Part shown: positions 3,074 through 50,883 of the stretch, one piece after another
Layout: the number at the start of each line of letters is the position of its first letter
How positions within the stretch are numbered: the stretch's first letter is position 1
IMG/VR virus record: IMGVR_UViG_3300037455_000100
Span: 1 to 64,000 of that record
Reading direction: 5' to 3' (one strand)
DNA: 64,000 nt
DNA from: a virus
Lineage: Duplodnaviria; Caudoviricetes
Position numbers and translations under genes: made by a program
Notes under the pieces: model-generated
What the model was told of the DNA's origin: nothing
The model's input: the letters and a program-made list of their open reading frames with translations, nothing else
The model's database searches: none

Positions 3074-5329
3074 TTAGTGTATAAAACCATTTCTTTTAAA
3101 GAAATCGTCACTAGATGCAGTATATTCTTCTGTTGTTTGTTGTTCTTGAATATTTCCATTATATCTAATTTGAAATTCTTCTCTATATAACATAGCAAGT
3201 CCTAATGCTCTGATTCTATCACAGTTTATTTCAGGACTATACTGACTCAACTCTTGAAGAAGAGCAATATTTTTTATAGTACTAACATTAGGTACTGTTA
3301 TTTCCACTTCTTTACCTTCTTGATTTTTCTCGATTCTTGTCTTAGGTAATAATAACCAATTTCTAACTAAAGTATTAGCATAGTCATTAACTGGTTTTGT
3401 TGCAGTAACTCCCCTTGAAGTATTTCCATAACCTATCTTCTTAACAATATCTTTATCTTTCAGATATTCAGGAGTTTCTGCAAGAAGATATAAGCAATTC
3501 ATCTTACTAAAATAACTGTATGTACCTTTTAAATTCTGTTCATACAAACATTTACAGTTATAAAATAAACATAATTTTCTTAGTATTTCATAATTATTCT
3601 CAGCAAAATCTTGCCTGCCAGTGTACTCAGCAGCAATTTCATCTGTCCATAAATCAATAATAAATATTGATGCTAGTGAAACTGAATCTGCCGACTCAAA
3701 ATCTACAGGGTCAAATCCTGCACAATATCTATCTTCCACTACTCTACCTTGAGAATCTTTTTGAGGCATTGAATATATTTCTATCGCTCCATTATATTTA
3801 GAACCTTTTAAAGGATAACTTCTAATAGGTTTATCTTGAGTAGGTTCATATTTTATCTCTCCAGTGTTATCTTGTACAAGTTTTCCTACATAAACATCAT
3901 TTAATAAAGATTCTTTAGCCATTAATTCAGATAACCTTTCATTAATTTCAGTTGTAGGAAATATACTTCTTCTAACTCTCAATATTGCCTCTGACGGTGT
4001 AATAGGTTGCTCTGCTATAACTCTTATAATAGTATTTGGGTCTTTGGTATTATATTTAGTATGATGCCTGTATTGTAATATATTAATCAATGCACCTACG
4101 ACATCTGATATACCATCTTTATTATAAAAACCTTTTCTATTAATATAAGAAGGAAAGAAAAAGCTAAATTTAGAATTTCCATCACCTCTATCAAACACAT
4201 TAGGCAATCCATATATATTATAACCAGATGGACTATAAACTAATTCCTTAGCACCTTCAAAGTCAGACTTTTTATTGCCAGAAGTACCTACTAGATACAT
4301 CATAGCAAACGCTACTCCAGCTTCTTCAACAGAGTCTCTAACAGTATTATATATTTCAGTAAGGTTTTTAAAACTACCAAACTCTTCAAATAATATGTAA
4401 CCACGCTTACCACGCAATTTATCAGAATCATCTTTACAAGCGACTCCAGCAACTGAATTTCTTGAGCCTTTTATAGCATTAGTTTCACTATCTCTATAAC
4501 CCATTTGCCAAGCCATTTTATTAGGACTATCTATAATTTTACGTCTTGGAAATTGAGTATATGTAGCACAATGGTCTAATATAGGTAGAAATTTACTCAT
4601 AGTACCATCTTTTTCAGCTAAGTACTCTTTAAGATAAGCCGTTAATATAGTAACAAATCTTTTATGAGCCGTCATACTTTCTCCCATAACAAGATTATGT
4701 GACATCATACTAGCTAGAGTATATGATTTAGAACAACCTCTCCTAGATAATTCTGAGGCGTGTTGACCCCCTTTAAAATTGTTATAAATACCACCAAACC
4801 TTGCTTGATGTAAATAATGATACCTCCAAAAAATACCTTCCCAAACATCTGGAAATCCTTCAATACGATTAGCATAATTAGTACCTTCTACCCTCTCATT
4901 AATCATCATTGGCATATAATTTAAATACCAATACATTAATCCAGTAATCCATGCACCATCACTCTTTCTAACCATACCATTCCAGCATCTGTTTCGCTCT
5001 CTTCTTAACCATACACCATATTCACTATTAGGATTAGCATTAGGTCTTAAATGTGTATAACATCCTTCCTTTAAAAAGAAATCTCTAGTTTGTGTAAAAT
5101 AATCTACATTTGTAAGTATTGGAGGATTTGCCAAGTCTATAATAGCTCTACCATTCTCGTCTTTTGGACAATCTTTAATCAACTTCCTATCCGGACTTAT
5201 CAACCTTTTTATAAATAAAACATTAGTTACATAGTCCATAAACTGTTCTCTAACTTCTGTATTAAGAGAATCCAATAGTTCACTAGTAATAGGAGTTTGA
5301 TACTTGTTTGTTGGAATTATTATACTCAT
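3074..5329 (-). CDS. terL: Terminase large subunit
   Basis: Walker A-like SRRGCSKS, Walker B ILFEEFG, RNase H-like nuclease AGFDPVD...LYEQN...DRI. Confidence 0.92.
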   Translation of the reverse strand: MSIIIPTNKYQTPITSELLDSLNTEVREQFMDYVTNVLFIKRLISPDRKLIKDCPKDENGRAIIDLANPPILTNVDYFTQTRDFFLKEGCYTHLRPNANPNSEYGVWLRRERNRCWNGMVRKSDGAWITGLMYWYLNYMPMMINERVEGTNYANRIEGFPDVWEGIFWRYHYLHQARFGGIYNNFKGGQHASELSRRGCSKSYTLASMMSHNLVMGESMTAHKRFVTILTAYLKEYLAEKDGTMSKFLPILDHCATYTQFPRRKIIDSPNKMAWQMGYRDSETNAIKGSRNSVAGVACKDDSDKLRGKRGYILFEEFGSFKNLTEIYNTVRDSVEEAGVAFAMMYLVGTSGNKKSDFEGAKELVYSPSGYNIYGLPNVFDRGDGNSKFSFFFPSYINRKGFYNKDGISDVVGALINILQYRHHTKYNTKDPNTIIRVIAEQPITPSEAILRVRRSIFPTTEINERLSELMAKESLLNDVYVGKLVQDNTGEIKYEPTQDKPIRSYPLKGSKYNGAIEIYSMPQKDSQGRVVEDRYCAGFDPVDFESADSVSLASIFIIDLWTDEIAAEYTGRQDFAENNYEILRKLCLFYNCKCLYEQNLKGTYSYFSKMNCLYLLAETPEYLKDKDIVKKIGYGNTSRGVTATKPVNDYANTLVRNWLLLPKTRIEKNQEGKEVEITVPNVSTIKNIALLQELSQYSPEINCDRIRALGLAMLYREEFQIRYNGNIQEQQTTEEYTASSDDFFKRNGFIH

Positions 5330-9049: not shown

Positions 9050-9426
9050 AATACTATTAAAGATAAAAGTTTATAAATTATAGGCATATACCATTTCTGA
9101 GGATAGTCAATATCCACTGATACTGTATGTGATTTAAATAATCCTAACTTATAAAGATTATTATGTGCAATCCATTCGTTAATACAACTAGACTTAGTTC
9201 TATTCTGTATTACTTTATTATCATAATTATCATATATCCAATCCATAATATCTATAATATCTTTACGTTTTGATATTTTATATGAATCTTCTATATGAAT
9301 ATTATAGTCAGTTACAATTATAGTACAACCGTCCTTTTGTAGTATATAAGATACACATCTTATACCACCTCTATTTACCTTTTTTACAATAATTTTATCA
9401 AATTCCATAATATAAATTTTTTGCAA
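9046..9426 (-). CDS. Hypothetical protein
   Basis: ORF overlapping peptidase start; EWIAHN motif; true start probably the MEFDK Met. Confidence 0.6.
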   Translation of the reverse strand: MQKIYIMEFDKIIVKKVNRGGIRCVSYILQKDGCTIIVTDYNIHIEDSYKISKRKDIIDIMDWIYDNYDNKVIQNRTKSSCINEWIAHNNLYKLGLFKSHTVSVDIDYPQKWYMPIIYKLLSLIVL

Positions 9427-13640: not shown

Positions 13641-13805
13641 AATAAATACAAATGAATATTGTAACTAAATATAATAAAAGAATAGGTTCTCAATTATCCT
13701 GTTAAAATTGGTTTTAGAGCGAGGGTAGATTAAATGTGAGCAATATCAATAAGTCTCACACTATCCTTGCTTATTTTATAAAACAATAATTAAATACGAC
13801 ACATA

Positions 13806-14270
13806 ATGAAAGACAAACAAAAATTAAAAGATTTAATTTATATACTTCTATTAATAGGAGTATTATTTATCTGCGTTAAAATGGTACTGCTTCATAAATC
13901 ATGCAGTGCTAACAATATACAAGACACTATAAGTCCATATCCATACGAATGGGATTTGTATGAAGATGGATGCATAGCATTAAACTTCAATTCAATCTAT
14001 TACATCGACACTACAAATATGGCTATATATTATGACGATTATGACCAGTTTGATATGTATCATGAATATGAGATTAATCCTAACAATATCAACAATGATG
14101 GTAATCTTTTAGTACATATATCAAAAGATAATCTAGTTGAACTGATGAATAGAATACTACAGTATATGTCTTTCAATAATGACTATGATACCTCACACAA
14201 AATAGAGTCTATGTTTGGTATTAAAGAGATTAATAACTCATATCATGTGGTATATCTAGGCAAACTATAA
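13806..14270 (+). CDS. Membrane-anchored hypothetical protein
   Basis: N-terminal hydrophobic helix followed by an acidic domain. Confidence 0.6.
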   Translation: MKDKQKLKDLIYILLLIGVLFICVKMVLLHKSCSANNIQDTISPYPYEWDLYEDGCIALNFNSIYYIDTTNMAIYYDDYDQFDMYHEYEINPNNINNDGNLLVHISKDNLVELMNRILQYMSFNNDYDTSHKIESMFGIKEINNSYHVVYLGKL

Positions 14271-14363
14271 CAATATAGAATCTATATAGAGAGGTCTTTA
14301 TTTAACTTTTTTGCGGATACTAAAGTTATACTATATAAATTCTATTATATCTAATATAATAAA

Positions 14364-14838
14364 ATTATGAGTGCGTAGACGAGAAATCTCTATGTAGAAG
14401 CACCCTAATTCGGTGAACATCCTTAATGTTGAAATTTGTGATACTAATGGTCTAAAATTGCTTGAAATAAAGCAGCCAAAACAAACAAATGACACAAAAC
14501 AACACTAAATAATAATGTGTAAGAACGATGCCGAGCTAAATTGAGAATCATTCACAGTAGGGCAACCGCTTGAGACGGGATTGTTGCAAACGTCTTAATG
14601 ATTTTCATAAATGCGTATAGACTAATAGGTGCAGCCTAAGTTGAAATTAGTAGATTATCCTAGTAATTTTGTATCGTAAAAAGTAGTATAACGTACATTA
14701 TACATGATACATAACCTCTAGATTAGATATATAGCATGGTAGTGTGCAGTCCCCATGTAATGATAATCACTTACTTGCAAGAATTTCAATATGGTTAAAT
14801 AGTCTAAAAGTCCTACATACTCATAATGTAGGCAATAT
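14364..14838 (+). ncRNA. Free-standing group I intron-like ribozyme
   Basis: P2 with GAAA loop, P3 GCACC/GGTGC, AATTCGGTGAA and GCCGAGC (P4/P6), P7 TAGACTA/TAGTCTA, long P8, P9 CCTACAT/ATGTAGG. Confidence 0.7.
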
Positions 14839-14922
14839 GCTCCCGTGACGTAATAGGCAGCCGTGTCAGACTTAAAATCTGATGTCCAAAAGGACGTATG
14901 GGTTCAAATCCCATCGGGAGTA
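14839..14922 (+). tRNA. tRNA-Leu (TAA)
   Basis: GCTCCCG/CGGGAGT acceptor, TCAGA-CTTAAAA-TCTGA anticodon arm, long variable arm, ATGGG-TTCAAAT-CCCAT T arm. Confidence 0.92.
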
Positions 14923-15229
14923 CTAACTGTAAATAGCAAAATCTGAGATTAGACTAAGATTGGCAGTCCGACTAATAGTGTTAAATATCCCCTGATGCAC
15001 GGGGTAGGTAAGCCACTATTTACAGTTTAATTTAAGACTGAAGCCGATACCGGGATATATAATAGTAAGAGGTAATATCAGTAAGAGAGACTCCACCTCT
15101 GAACTTATATATAAAGTAAGGATAAAACCGCCTGAAGCCAGTCTTATACTATAAGAAGTGAGTACCCTTTATTTTCATGGATAATTAATTGATTAGGTTT
15201 GTCATAATATTATTTACTCACTTCTTTAT

Positions 15230-15312
15230 GGGGGTATAGCACGTAATGGAAGCGTATCAGTCTTCTAAACTGATGTCGTAAGACCTTGTGGGTTCGAGTC
15301 CCACTACCCTCT
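15230..15312 (+). tRNA. tRNA with TCT anticodon (Arg) and atypical long variable arm
   Basis: GGGGGTA/TACCCTC acceptor, TCAGT-CTTCTAA-ACTGA anticodon arm, GTC-GTAA-GAC extra arm, GTGGG-TTCGAGT-CCCAC T arm. Confidence 0.8.
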
Positions 15313-15358
15313 CAAATTATCTAAGGTTTAATTTAATGTTTCTTTTAATTTCCATATC

Positions 15359-15390
15359 TCACTATCGTTGTGAAACGGTAGTGATTTTTT
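15359..15390 (+). terminator. Intrinsic terminator
   Basis: TCACTATCG-TTGTGAAA-CGGTAGTGA then TTTTTT. Confidence 0.7.
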
Positions 15391-15424
15391 ATTTAAACTA
15401 ATAATAAATTAACACACAAATATT

Positions 15425-15667
15425 ATGTATACACATCAAACACTAAAACAATGTGGACAGAATACTTATAATAGTATAAACTGTACAAACAAAATTCGTA
15501 AAGTCTCACAAAATAAATTTGAGAATGTTACGTTAGTAGGCAAACATGCTTTTAATTATACAGTACTCATACAAAATAAGAGTACTAAAACATTGAAAGC
15601 TGTATCATTCCCTACAAGAAAAGAAGCAATTACTTTCTTTTTACTAACTATTAAGAAATACAACTAA
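15425..15667 (+). CDS. Hypothetical protein
   Basis: 80 aa with ACACACAAA leader. Confidence 0.55.
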   Translation: MYTHQTLKQCGQNTYNSINCTNKIRKVSQNKFENVTLVGKHAFNYTVLIQNKSTKTLKAVSFPTRKEAITFFLLTIKKYN

Positions 15668-15891
15668 TAAGATAATTATGGAAAATATTAAATCCAGCGC
15701 TGAACTAATGGATGAAATATCATTCATCAGTACAAAAGAATACTTGTAGAGAGAGGTCTTTGTTATTTTGTACAAAAAAAAATAATACTCTACAAGTAAT
15801 TATAAGGCTTCTTTTAAAAACTATAGGTTTCATGGTAGTTAGTTATATGTTTTCTGTTTGTGGGTAATAGTACCTTAAAGAAGCCTTAAAT

Positions 15892-15963
15892 TGTCCTATA
15901 GTATAATGGTTATTACATCAGATTTTGGTTCTGAGAATCTAGGTTCGATTCCTAGTAGGACAA
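15892..15963 (+). tRNA. tRNA-Gln (TTG)
   Basis: TGTCCTA/TAGGACA acceptor, TCAGA-TTTTGGT-TCTGA anticodon arm, CTAGG-TTCGATT-CCTAG T arm. Confidence 0.92.
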
Positions 15964-15979
15964 CTAAATATATAATATT

Positions 15980-16186
15980 ATGAATAAAGAAGAGATAATA
16001 GTAAATCCATCAGAAGTAATCACGCTTATAGATGGTACAAGAACTAAAAGTGTTATGCCAGAGTATAATGATGAAATGGTATTTGAGTCAGTATATTCTG
16101 TAGAAAGTATAATAATTAGAGCTAAAAATAGAAATGAAGCTATAGAAAAATATAAAGAAATAAGAAGTAATTTATTAATAGACTAA
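15980..16186 (+). CDS. Hypothetical protein
   Basis: 68 aa ORF. Confidence 0.55.
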   Translation: MNKEEIIVNPSEVITLIDGTRTKSVMPEYNDEMVFESVYSVESIIIRAKNRNEAIEKYKEIRSNLLID

Positions 16187-16491
16187 GAAGTAAGATTCCT
16201 ATGGTCTACAGCCGATAAGTGTAGGTGTATCCTTTTGTTATCTGTTATACTATTTCGTTATTATTAATCTTACTTCTTTATAATATAGGTGGTAGAGTTG
16301 TTTTTGTTAGTCTAATGGTGTTGTTTTTCTCCTCTACCACCTTCTTTATTGATAATCATAGTTTTTGTGTTATAGATGTGTGTAAAGAAACTTTTCAGCT
16401 ATTAAGTACTATTTAATAACTGACTAACGGCTAAGTTTCAGTAATTGGTTATAGTCCGTTTTACATTTGAAACACTTTAAAATTAAATATT

Positions 16492-46918: not shown

Positions 46919-47365
46919 ATGGAGAAAGTAATTACTGAATTAAAACGAACCGCTGCCAATATACCTTATATAACAGTAAAACATAATAATGTTGAATTTA
47001 ACTTTATTGTAGATAGTGGATGTACTATATCATGTATTGATGAAAATGTGTTAGATTTATTAGTACATACAGATACAGGAGAATTATCTGATGGAGTATT
47101 ATTTGCTAACGGTGAAGGTACTAAAACTAATAAAATAATAAAATTATCTTTTAAATTAAACGATAAAGAATTTACTGAGACATTTAATGCATTAGATTTT
47201 TATAGTATGACCAAACAAGTTAAAGATAATTTTGGTATTACTGTTAGAGGATTACTTGGTAGTGAATTTTTATATAAAAATAAACTTATATTAGATTTTG
47301 ATGAATCTATTATCAAATATAGAGACAATAACCAATTAGAGTTGAATTTAAATGAACAGTCATGA
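46919..47365 (+). CDS. Retropepsin-like aspartic protease
   Basis: FIVDSG catalytic motif and GLLG.EFL. Confidence 0.8.
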   Translation: MEKVITELKRTAANIPYITVKHNNVEFNFIVDSGCTISCIDENVLDLLVHTDTGELSDGVLFANGEGTKTNKIIKLSFKLNDKEFTETFNALDFYSMTKQVKDNFGITVRGLLGSEFLYKNKLILDFDESIIKYRDNNQLELNLNEQS

Positions 47366-48567
47366 TTTACTTGGTATCATTACAACAAAGAATACATTCA
47401 GATGAGATAACTTTAATATCTGTAGAAGAATCTTTAAAACTTTTAAGTTCTTTAACCGTAGTAGGATTAGATACTGAAACTAGAGGAATGGACCCTTATA
47501 CTAAAGAGTTATTATCTGTGCAACTTGGCTGTAATGATTTCCAAGTAGTCATAGATTGTTCTTCAATAGATATAAAATTTTATAAAGAATATTTAGAATC
47601 CGATAGACTTTTTATAGGGTGGAATTTAAAATTTGACTTAAAGTTTTTATTTCATAAAAACATTTATCCCAAGAAAGTATATGATGGGTATCTAGCTGAG
47701 AAACTAATGTGGTTAGGCTATCCAGCTGGTATGCACAGTATGTCTTTGAAATCTGCTGGTGTACAATATTTAGACATTGAATTAGATAAATCTGTACGCG
47801 GTAAAATACAGTGGGCAGGATTAACAGATGATGTTATTATATATGCAGCATACGATGTAAAATATTTGGATGATATACGTCTTAAACAATTAGACTTACT
47901 TAAAGAGAAGGATTTATTAAGAGCAATAGACTGTGAGAATCAGTTTATACTTCCTTTATCTTATTGTGAATATTGTGGTGTTAGATTGGATGTAGACAAA
48001 TGGAAAGTTAAAATGCATAAAGATGAAGAAAGAGTTAGTAAAGCCTTAGTTAAGCTTAATGAATGGTTTCTTAAAAATGAGCCAAACTCTTCTTATATAG
48101 TAGTAGACAGACAAGGTGATTTATTCAGTGGGTTTGATTTAACACCTAAAGTAACTATAAATTGGAACAGTGCTAAACAACTTATACCTATTTTTAAAAA
48201 GTATGGGATAGATGTTACTGTAGAAGATAGAGATAAAGGAGGAACTAAAGACAGTATTGATGCTAAACAATTAGGACCACAAAAAGATAAGTGTGACTTG
48301 ATACCTATATATTTAGACTATAAAGAAGCTGTTAAAGTTACCTCAACTTATGGTAAAAACTTTCTAGACCAAATTAATGTTGACGGTAGAATCCATACAA
48401 ACTATAATCAATTAGGAGCTGATACTACAAGAATAACTTCTGGAGGTAAAGATAAAAGCAATAATATTGATTATGTAAATCTTTTGAATTTACCAGCAGA
48501 TGCCGAGACTAGAGCCTGTTTTGTAGCCGAAGAAGGTAATAAATGGATAAGTATTGATTATTCGGGT
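47362..48567 (+). CDS. polA: DNA polymerase family A, exon 1 (3'-5' exonuclease through motif A)
   Basis: GLDTET, WNLKFD, YAAYD, TTRITS; ends ISIDYSG. Confidence 0.9.
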
Positions 48568-49589
48568 TAGCAAATAAATCGCTTATAAATTTGTGTATAT
48601 GGATTATTTTTCTTATATTTGCACATTATTTAATAATGTGAATATATGAAAAAATTTAGCAAAGAAACTGAATTAGAAATAGTTAGCCTTTATAATAGAG
48701 GCTATACTCAAAAGGAAATTGCAGATAAATTGGGAACATTTAATACTTCTATTAGAAGAGTTTTATTACGTTATAATGTATTTTTAAAGGGCAATGACAA
48801 ACAGCAGAGATTGTGTAAGCATAATCCTTTTAAAAATAATGATGAATATTCTGAATACTATTTAGGATTACTCTTGACTGATGGCAATATAGACTATAAG
48901 AGTAAAAGAAATAGAATCAGATTATCACTTAACGAAATAGACGGTTATTTAGTAGAAGAGTTTTTAAATTGGTCTGCTCCTGAAGCAAAAGTTACTAAGA
49001 CTTTACAAAAGATAAACAATTCTTATATGTGGAGTGCTGCTATAACTAATAGAGAAGCTTTAGAATGGCTTGAAAGAAAAGCAAGTTTTCATAATAAAAG
49101 CTTCGATGCTAAATTATATACTCCTATAACATACAACATATTAAGAGGAATAATAGATGGTGATGGGGGATTCTACCCTCAAAACAAAAATGCTATTAAA
49201 ATCTCTATTTGCGGTAAGTCCTTAGTATTTCTAAAACAAATTCAATTCTTTTTAAACAAAGAAGGCTATCACTCCAGTTTATTTGAGCATAATAATTTAT
49301 ATTATATTCAAATAATGAGGGTGGAAGATGTTTTAAAATTAGGCACAAATTTATATGAAAATGCCCATATTTTCTGTAAAAGAAAGTATGAAAAATGGCT
49401 CGCCTTCTATGAAAGTAGAAGGGCAAACACCTTAAATTCAGGGAAAAAGATGGCAATTCAACCCTGAGCGAAACCTACTCACCTTATGGTAATAATTAAA
49501 GAAGTAGGGACGTGCAGAGACTATAATAGGTGCACCTAAACATATTTATTATGCATGGTGAAGGGATAGTCCAACCTACGATTTGGTTG
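48568..49589 (+). mobile_element. Group I intron 1 in polA
   Basis: Exon ends in U, intron ends in G; splicing gives DYSG|QE; core AAATTCAGGGAA, CCCTGAGC, GCAGAGACTA, ATAGTCC. Confidence 0.88.
48646..49467 (+). CDS. Intron-encoded double-motif LAGLIDADG homing endonuclease
   Basis: YLGLLLTDG and LRGIIDGDG; N-terminal HTH; own TTTG-N20-TATATTTG promoter (48590-48621). Confidence 0.88.
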   Translation: MKKFSKETELEIVSLYNRGYTQKEIADKLGTFNTSIRRVLLRYNVFLKGNDKQQRLCKHNPFKNNDEYSEYYLGLLLTDGNIDYKSKRNRIRLSLNEIDGYLVEEFLNWSAPEAKVTKTLQKINNSYMWSAAITNREALEWLERKASFHNKSFDAKLYTPITYNILRGIIDGDGGFYPQNKNAIKISICGKSLVFLKQIQFFLNKEGYHSSLFEHNNLYYIQIMRVEDVLKLGTNLYENAHIFCKRKYEKWLAFYESRRANTLNSGKKMAIQP

Positions 49590-49776: not shown

Positions 49777-50883
49777 AAACATAAATAGTAAGTTTTGATT
49801 ATTATTATATTTAACTATTTGTCTATTTTAAAAATTAATTGTATATTTGCAAAATAAAATTTACAAGCTATGATTATTAAAGTAGATGATTTAGAGTTAC
49901 TTAAGAAGAAAGGTATATATAGTATTACTAACATATTAAATAATAAAAAATATATTGGAAGTACTGCTAAATCCTTTCAATCAAGACTTACTCAGCATTT
50001 AAGTAAACTAAGATTACAAAAGCATCATTGTGTACATTTACAATATGCTTGGACTAAATACGGTGAAGATAATTTTATATTCACTATTGAAGAGGTTTTA
50101 GATAATGTAGATAATTTATTAGATAAGGAAGCTGAATATATAGCTAAGTATGATAGTTATCATTCTGGCTATAATGCTAATCCAAACCCTAATACATCCC
50201 CTATGTTTAATGTAAATTCTAAAGAGAAAAGTTCTTTAACTCATAAACAACAATGGGAAAATCTACGAAATTCTATGACCGAAGAAGAATATCAGTCTTT
50301 TGTTAAAGATAGGTATGCTTTTCGATATGGAATTTCTCCGGCAAATAAGGGTAAAAAGGCTTCAGAAGAAATTAAAGTTAAAATGAGAAAGCCTAAGGTA
50401 AACGGAGTCACATCAGCCATGAAAGCTGTACATATTAAAAATGCAGAACTTATCAAAGATAAATCTGATTATATTTTAGTTTACGATATAAATAAAAATT
50501 GGATTAATACTTTTAGGTGTAATTCGGACTTAGTATGGTATAGTAAATCGGAGTTTAATGACCTACCAATGATTCTTAAAAAGAATAGTAGTAGGTTCTT
50601 AGACCCCTCCAAAATTGCTAACCATATTAAAGACGGAAGACCCTATAAAGGATTATATTTCGTGCGAGCTCCCAAGAGTAGGAAACTCTCTTGTGCAAAT
50701 GGGATGAATTCATGGAAAGCTGAAAAGCCAATCATGAGCCAAGCAGGAAGTACACTTTCTGAAGGTGCAGAGACTACTGGAGAGGTTTAGCCCTCTTAAT
50801 AACCAGCTAGAGCGTCCCACACCTAAACATATTTATTATGCATGGTGATGATATAGTCCAACGGGTGAATGCTGCACCCTATG
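49777..50883 (+). mobile_element. Group I intron 2 in polA
   Basis: T|TC junction restores Phe in AKGIEFAINYG (motif B); core GAATTCATGGAA, CATGAGCC, GCAGAGACTA, ATATAGTCC; terminal G. Confidence 0.88.
49870..50790 (+). CDS. Intron-encoded GIY-YIG homing endonuclease
   Basis: GIYSITN...KYIGS...R...GYN; own TTTG-N20-TATATTTG promoter (49818-49849). Confidence 0.88.
   Translation: MIIKVDDLELLKKKGIYSITNILNNKKYIGSTAKSFQSRLTQHLSKLRLQKHHCVHLQYAWTKYGEDNFIFTIEEVLDNVDNLLDKEAEYIAKYDSYHSGYNANPNPNTSPMFNVNSKEKSSLTHKQQWENLRNSMTEEEYQSFVKDRYAFRYGISPANKGKKASEEIKVKMRKPKVNGVTSAMKAVHIKNAELIKDKSDYILVYDINKNWINTFRCNSDLVWYSKSEFNDLPMILKKNSSRFLDPSKIANHIKDGRPYKGLYFVRAPKSRKLSCANGMNSWKAEKPIMSQAGSTLSEGAETTGEV

Follow-up and report, generated by a model that had tools for sequence, protein, structure and literature searches.

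The lariat-capping ribozyme GIR1 has been called the unique example of a selfish self-splicing RNA converted to a host RNA (PMC3679873). According to a 2014 review, all phage group I introns then known resided in protein-coding genes, despite the many tRNA genes of phages (PMC3984707), and our literature search yielded no report of such introns in tRNA genes of phages. Here we analyzed a stretch of 64,000 nucleotides (hereafter, the window), located at the beginning of a virus record (IMGVR_UViG_3300037455_000100) that measures 103,304 bp and has direct terminal repeats; its portal protein is ~47% identical to crAss-like phage portals. The window contains an exon-less group I-like RNA element at positions 14364–14833, within a 568-nt gap between the open reading frame (ORF) 13806–14270 and an intact tRNA-Leu(UAA) gene; the largest ORF inside this gap is no longer than 54 aa. 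In our preferred interpretation, to which we assign a probability of roughly 0.55, the element is a folded, non-splicing, intron-derived leader RNA that is still under selection and is released from the tRNA by RNase P.

A complete group I core, extending from P2 to P9, was identified in the element, with the named helices at or within a few bases of the positions given in a preliminary description of the locus (Table 1). That description had also stated that the element interrupts no ORF or tRNA and carries no endonuclease; in agreement, an ORF scan of the locus revealed neither an ORF interrupted by the element nor an adjoining endonuclease ORF, and ARAGORN in intron mode made no split-tRNA call for the tRNA-Leu of the window. 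The variable P8 extension reported there is indeed present, but its length is ~130 nt rather than 170 nt. P8 contains the sequence CCUAAG...UAUGG, which we take to be the classical 11-nt GAAA-receptor motif, and the G14620–C14804 pair of P7, which is associated with G binding, is kept.

A search for the same ribozyme–tRNA adjacency in relatives was successful. The protein upstream of the element has three relatives (60–69% identical), and contigs L002 and L003 share the arrangement seen in the window: near-invariant islands are split by unalignable stretches, and tRNA-Leu(UAA) begins 6–7 nt past the last hairpin. A search with the downstream 80-aa protein added just two contigs, one of them (L038) identical to L002 and the other (L039) too short. 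When the invariant blocks were used for scanning, the same RNA family was detected in other uncultured phages and in metagenome-assembled genomes, and blocks of the element matched bona fide tRNA introns with BLAST E values down to 6e-16. ARAGORN in intron mode predicted split tRNA-Leu(UAA) genes in L011 and L022, with introns of 382 and 538 nt, respectively, and a split tRNA-Arg(UCU) gene with a 628-nt intron in L014. Two further members, in L005 and L017, split Leu-like tRNAs that ARAGORN, following its own splice choices, labels as Ser(UGA) and 'Stop'. In L007, the intron lies between two open frames reading ...YYLFTS and TKGGKSQL... (P-loop), for which Pfam gave no family; the intron family therefore probably also splits a P-loop gene.

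Insertion of the family always follows CUU, which in the tRNAs lies in the anticodon loop, and the guide GAGU of canonical members pairs with (A)CUU via a U–G wobble. The cyanobacterial introns detected by RF00028 lie between tRNA-Leu halves, at the junction of CUU and AAAA. The canonical phage relatives share this site and the P1–P9 helix order with the cyanobacterial trnL introns, and an alignment (A4) revealed common strings in P4, J4/5, P4′/P6 and P7/P3′. Because site, helix order and core strings all match, the phage family is, as judged from sequence, a group of IC3-like group I introns enlarged by insertions, whose usual home is the anticodon loop of tRNA-Leu(UAA). Unlike the cyanobacterial introns, the phage introns are extended by large insertions in P5, P6, P8 and P9 and escape detection by RF00028, and the window copy further differs from them in lying outside the tRNA, lacking exons and having altered P7, J8/7 and P9 elements.

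The assignment of the window element to group I is based on its homology to these gene-splitting introns and not on a database model. No group I match emerged when the window and the region were scanned with Rfam cmscan, whether at the gathering threshold or at E ≤ 10; at the latter cutoff, no ribozyme family, the GIR1 model included, matched within 13800–16200, and RF00028 run directly on the genome missed the element at 14364–14833. The preliminary description had treated a lack of significant covariance-model matches as evidence against its proposal, yet this outcome is uninformative because both cmscan and RF00028 also miss bona fide split-tRNA members of the family. None of the 12 RF00028 seeds was bacterial (10.1101/2020.01.27.920355). 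Against viral contigs, the neighboring protein gave no matches. Among GenBank phage records, the matches of the window region were all short and tRNA-like, covering 6% and 4% of the query, and a canonical family member gave no match.

Covariation was assessed in an alignment of nine sequences (A3) covering 45 pairs of P2, P3, P4, P5, P5b, P6 and P8. These helices were 96% paired, compared with 36–45% when one strand was slid, and 18 pairs were changed on both sides; the observed values were reached in 0 of 500 shuffles. P7 covaries between subfamilies (GACUAU/AUAGUC, GAACAU/AUGUUC and GCACAU/AUGUGC). The upstream protein is just 60–69% identical between the relatives, and the spacers, the peripheral RNA domains and a pseudo-exon have diverged past alignment, yet the core blocks hardly vary among the window, L002 and L003. 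A near-invariant core combined with compensatory change in lineage-specific features suggests that the fold is under selection in the window lineage. Single-sequence folding was not decisive, with z values of −2.1 on the + strand and −1.5 on the − strand.

Four features, namely the pairing of the guide with the P9 loop, P9 itself, P7 and J8/7, are remodeled in common in the window, L002 and L003. The complementarity of the 5′ strand to the P9 loop had been noticed in the window sequence; the pairing is retained in all three lineages over 6–9 bp, with one position appearing as G–C, G–U and A–U. The resulting duplex resembles guide-bound ligated exons, ACU(C/U) followed by AUA. A P1 helix with a 5′ splice site (U–G wobble) beside a real 5′ exon is not found in the window, where the guide pairs with the P9 loop through C–G. 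The distal P9 hairpin, including its GNRA loop, has been lost, and the sole candidate omega-G residues, G14831 and G14832, pair with C14813 and C14812 inside the P9 stem, which extends past a bulged U by a covarying G–C/A–U pair; the homology of this GG to the canonical 3′ end (...UAGG) is ambiguous at the nucleotide level. An extra U in the 3′ strand of P7 faces the A that is bulged in 6/6 canonical members, so that this A is paired in 3/3 window-type sequences, and J8/7 spans 4–7 nt across the window-type sequences, depending on where the P7 boundary is placed, compared with 7 nt in canonical members. The absence of the bulged A and the short J8/7, both pointed out previously, were thereby confirmed against the six canonical members. 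The AACA sequence of J4/5 and the C–A mismatch in P5 occur in the window alone.

One proposal of the preliminary description was not supported, namely cleavage at the 5′ end of the tRNA with its G1 serving as omega-G. Hydrolysis at a group I 3′ splice site cuts 3′ of omega-G. G1 was rejected in this role because the cut would fall after it rather than before it and would remove it from the tRNA; in addition, position −1 of tRNA-Leu is U in the window, L002 and L003. A U at this position is compatible with ordinary RNase P cleavage. The sequence AAUAU, formerly regarded as a linker between P9 and the tRNA, is the tRNA's own leader; a similar leader precedes the decayed 5′ exon of L003 and the true 5′ exon of L011.

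The contig L003 provides information about the origin of this arrangement. Directly upstream of its ribozyme lie a decayed 5′ half of tRNA-Leu and its leader (z of 8.7 against the L011 exon, 0 of 300 shuffles), and the differences in the alignment are transitions throughout (G-to-A or C-to-T). The same shuffle-controlled comparison with the L011 exon revealed no significant 5′ exon remnant in the window or L002. The order in L003 is fossil 5′ half, intron, native leader and whole tRNA. By homology, the element belongs, as a relocated copy, to a family of phage introns that reside in tRNA anticodon loops, with a fossil 5′ exon surviving in L003, a relationship that the preliminary description overlooked. 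Since L003 still has this decayed half upstream, the arrangement most likely goes back to a tRNA-Leu gene with an intron that underwent partial tandem duplication or aberrant recombination. Such an event would have yielded, in this order, the 5′ half that later decayed, an intron whose P9 is shortened, the native leader and the complete tRNA-Leu. In the window, the 5′ half would have decayed past recognition.

On the reading that we favor, the element would be transcribed as the 5′ leader of pre-tRNA-Leu and would then fold into a closed group I-like structure. RNase P would cut at 14838/14839 and separate the tRNA, after which the leader would persist as a stable RNA. As the sequences show, the scaffold is kept, with the GAAA loop of P2 predicted to face the receptor motif in P8 and with P3–P8 and P4–P6 conserved, while the reactive parts are rebuilt: the guide pairs with the P9 loop, the candidate omega-G position is in a stem, the P7 bulge is closed and J8/7 is shortened. 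A guide locked in this manner could no longer pair with its presumed ancestral target, the ACUU in the anticodon loop of the adjacent tRNA.

RNA data were available as contigs of one bovine-gut RNA library from one sample, and such contigs cannot prove transcription, RNA ends or levels. As a weak hint, contigs that are 100% identical to the window cover 14387–14804; one contig extends from the upstream ORF as far as 14795, and another, also 100% identical, covers 14924–15141, starting beside the 3′ end of the tRNA. There is no cover at ~14807–14877 and, in run X3, almost none at ~14293–14386. The depth in run X3 was 137 for the contig 14387–14804 and 2.1 for the upstream ORF contig, but these are single figures per contig and do not allow parts of the transcript to be ranked. 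No joint skipping the whole element was observed among the RNA contigs, the listed joints coming from other family members in the sample. The bovine-gut runs were X2 and X3; runs X4–X8 contained small shares only, which have no bearing on habitat.

Several observations weigh against a selected but non-splicing leader RNA. Over ~250 nt, the P3–P5–P4′ segment of L003 matches the canonical L005 intron at 100% identity, and part of the core conservation may therefore stem from recent gene conversion rather than from selection in place. Each window-type sequence has 5 unique deviations at family-invariant columns, compared with 0–2 in canonical members, and these deviations, including A14418C in J4/5 and the P5 mismatch, could mean early decay. 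The neighborhood of the element is mosaic, and covariation specific to this form depends on few events, as the window-type sequences number three. Finally, the C–G pair in the helix between guide and P9 loop fails to exclude cleavage there, because some genuine bacterial tRNA introns have C at −1 (10.1101/2020.01.27.920355).

The first alternative is that the remodeled core still performs group I chemistry in cis as a domesticated self-cleaving ribozyme, either by guanosine attack or hydrolysis after ACU(C/U) at 14822/14823 or by hydrolysis beside G14832, either of which would yield a tRNA that keeps a short leader, or else a defined stable RNA. We consider this version of the domestication proposed in the preliminary description possible but unlikely. 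The conserved core, GAAA loop and receptor motif speak for it, and the helix between guide and loop mimics a P1+P10 ligated-exon duplex in three lineages, with a U–G pair at the cleavage position in L002. The pair at this would-be site, however, is C–G, U–G and U–A in the three sequences, although C at −1 is found in genuine tRNA introns (10.1101/2020.01.27.920355); the normally bulged A of the G-binding helix is paired, J8/7 is shortened and the candidate omega-G residues are within a covarying stem. GIR1 offers a precedent, being group I-like without splice sites and with a rearranged core (PMC3679873), whereas in the window a cut at the tRNA 5′ end itself is excluded by the U at −1, and self-cleavage would be superfluous given RNase P.

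An inert fossil is equally improbable in our estimation. The element would then be an intron that died after the rearrangement, its conservation owing to recent common descent and to repeated gene conversion from active introns of phages in the same cell rather than to function. The ~250-nt identity between L003 and L005 is readily explained in this way, as are the mosaic neighborhood with 98–100% identical patches beside swapped tRNA genes, the extra deviations at invariant positions and a 5′ exon that is visibly decaying or already lost. It is less compatible with the behavior of lineage-specific features absent from the canonical donors, which change by compensation: the P9 stem has 4 double changes and 0 broken pairs, and the guide remains paired with the loop in all three sequences, although spacers and the pseudo-exon diverged beyond alignment over the same period. 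An ordinary self-splicing intron in the pre-tRNA leader, with a 5′ site at ~14322 in the decayed exon and a 3′ site after G14832, which would join the leader to AAUAU-tRNA for RNase P to finish, is highly unlikely: the guide GAGU is retained, ACU occurs upstream at 14320–14322 and GG stands roughly where the canonical ...UAGG 3′ end does, but P1 with this ACU would have just 3 bp and no U–G against 7–9 bp in the competing helix between guide and P9 loop, both residues of the GG are engaged in pairs, a significant exon remnant is lacking in the window, no RNA contig is joined across the whole element (though contigs can miss such forms), and splicing without benefit leaves the conservation unexplained.

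Table 1. Features of the group I-like element and the adjacent tRNA gene in the window
Feature	Position	Strand	Basis or remark
Internal guide sequence (UAUGAGU)	14366–14372	+	Homologous to the GAGU guide of canonical members; pairs with P9 loop (alignments, pair table)
P2 hairpin, GAAA tetraloop 14383–14386	14374–14394	+	7/8 pairs changed on both sides, 9 sequences
P3 (GCACC 5′ strand)	14400–14404 with 14628–14632	+	100% paired; two compensatory pairs in L017
P4	14410–14415 with 14529–14534	+	Alignment
J4/5	14416–14419	+	AACA in window, AAAA in all other members
P5	14420–14424 with 14521–14525	+	One C–A mismatch in window
Variable P5 extension	14425–14520	+	Length and sequence differ between members; conserved hairpin 14502–14520 at its end
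P5 3′ strand, J5/4, P4 3′ strand	14521–14534	+	Alignment
P6 and variable extension	14542–14607 (14542–14552 with 14597–14607)	+	5/7 pairs changed on both sides
J6/7, P7 5′ strand, P3 3′ strand	14608–14632	+	Near-invariant in family; architecture as in cyanobacterial trnL introns
P7	14618–14624 with 14800–14806	+	5′ side within near-invariant family block
P8	14635–14794 (14635–14648 with 14782–14794)	+	CC/GG closing pairs; 8-bp stem 14641–14648 with 14782–14789
Palindrome CUUGCAAG, 8 nt	14774–14781	+	3′ base of P8 extension; invariant in 9/9 family members
J8/7 (UUAAA) and P7 3′ strand	14795–14806	+	Compared by eye with L005, L007, L011, L014, L017 and L022
P9 hairpin, loop 14819–14825	14810–14833	+	4/7 stem pairs changed on both sides, none broken (window, L002, L003)
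Native 5′ leader of tRNA-Leu (AAUAU), U at −1	14834–14838	+	Similar leader precedes the L003 fossil exon and the real L011 exon
tRNA-Leu(UAA), intact	14839–14923	+	ARAGORN and Rfam tRNA model, 54 bits

The palindrome CUUGCAAG has no evident partner within the molecule and could be a dimerization site or a protein-binding site. The identical stretch shared by the two phage introns mentioned above comprises P3, the P5 extension and P4′ (L003:~4330–4560 versus L005:~9160–9390), while the remainder is 44–74% identical, which suggests that introns of different phages have recently recombined. In a 72-kb phage, the ribozyme family is represented by a second, weaker copy (G003:C1:69099–69259, − strand), ~12 kb from the P-loop-gene intron. 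Among genomes carrying canonical introns, a 194-kb phage encodes a permuted tmRNA beside a tRNA cluster (L022:440–687, − strand; RF04321, 63 bits), and a 171-kb phage encodes a CUA-anticodon tRNA that may act as a TAG suppressor (L005:1368–1439, − strand). Matches to a 19-nt P-element pattern in Richelia, two Chitinophagaceae genomes and Treponema were dismissed as chance occurrences, probably in coding sequence and with no other intron block; BLAST of Richelia with a phage intron gave no match.

Comparison of the window with L002 revealed 98–100% identity over 14920–15218 and 15369–15620 but just 32–72% across the two tRNA genes, 14839–14923 and 15230–15313; the tRNA genes look like swapped cassettes within an otherwise common block. 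The spacer between tRNA-Leu and tRNA-Arg (14924–15229) is 98% identical to that of L002 though the flanking tRNA genes differ. Long-range stems are predicted within it, for example 14925–14936 with 15016–15027, and no Rfam family matched it; this spacer may represent a second stable non-coding RNA of the tRNA operon. An exact motif, AGAGGTCTTT, in the context GAGAGGTCTTT-(A/G)TTA, is located upstream of each of two tRNA units in the window (14290–14299 and 15752–15761), and a copy also precedes the L003 ribozyme. The motif may serve the tRNA region as a promoter or a terminator; a sigma-70 promoter scan found fewer sites than in shuffles and no usable start site.

Elsewhere in the window, RF00028 scored 57.9 bits at 50649–50874, a match not listed by Rfam cmscan. 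This element overlaps the 3′ end of a GIY-YIG endonuclease ORF (49870–50790), lies downstream of a truncated family-A DNA polymerase ORF (47362–48570) and is an ordinary mobile group I intron.

GNRA loops in L2 and L9 of the Azoarcus intron dock on P8 and P5. This IC3 intron of pre-tRNA-Ile (PMC13168695) resembles the phage family in being a small tRNA anticodon-loop intron with P2–P9 and P9.0; compared by description, the window form has instead lost the distal P9 GNRA hairpin and gained a pseudoknot between guide and L9. The c-di-GMP-controlled group I ribozyme of Clostridioides difficile (PMC3984707) likewise lies in a non-coding leader and is regarded as domesticated. It still splices, however, and is coupled to an aptamer and a ribosome-binding site, whereas the window element has no aptamer, is followed by a tRNA and has apparently lost its splice sites. 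GIR1 (PMC3679873) is the nearest precedent for what appears to be a new, exon-less and remodeled form: it is also group I-derived, lacks 5′ and 3′ splice sites, has a rearranged core and lies upstream of an RNA whose 5′ end it shapes. It differs in residing within eukaryotic twin-ribozyme rDNA introns, upstream of an endonuclease mRNA, and in having its own pseudoknot and branching chemistry; the window element shows no evident branching site and no match to the Rfam GIR1 model.

The intron family as a whole shows that IC3-like introns occur in tRNA genes of uncultured phages, as represented by metagenome assemblies, where they are invisible to the standard Rfam model. A bolder and rather unlikely interpretation is that the element follows GIR1 as the second natural example of a group I intron that became something else, with splice sites lost, active site rebuilt, guide tied to the P9 loop and the product selected in a tRNA operon. 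Such an RNA might be a cis-cleaving leader ribozyme, or a folded RNA for tRNA expression or for phage–host conflict over tRNA-Leu. A fossil would provide a dated record of how a tRNA gene lost its intron and how introns of different phages recombined; an active or functional element would illustrate, as GIR1 does, the conversion of a selfish self-splicing RNA into a host RNA, the host in this case being a phage.
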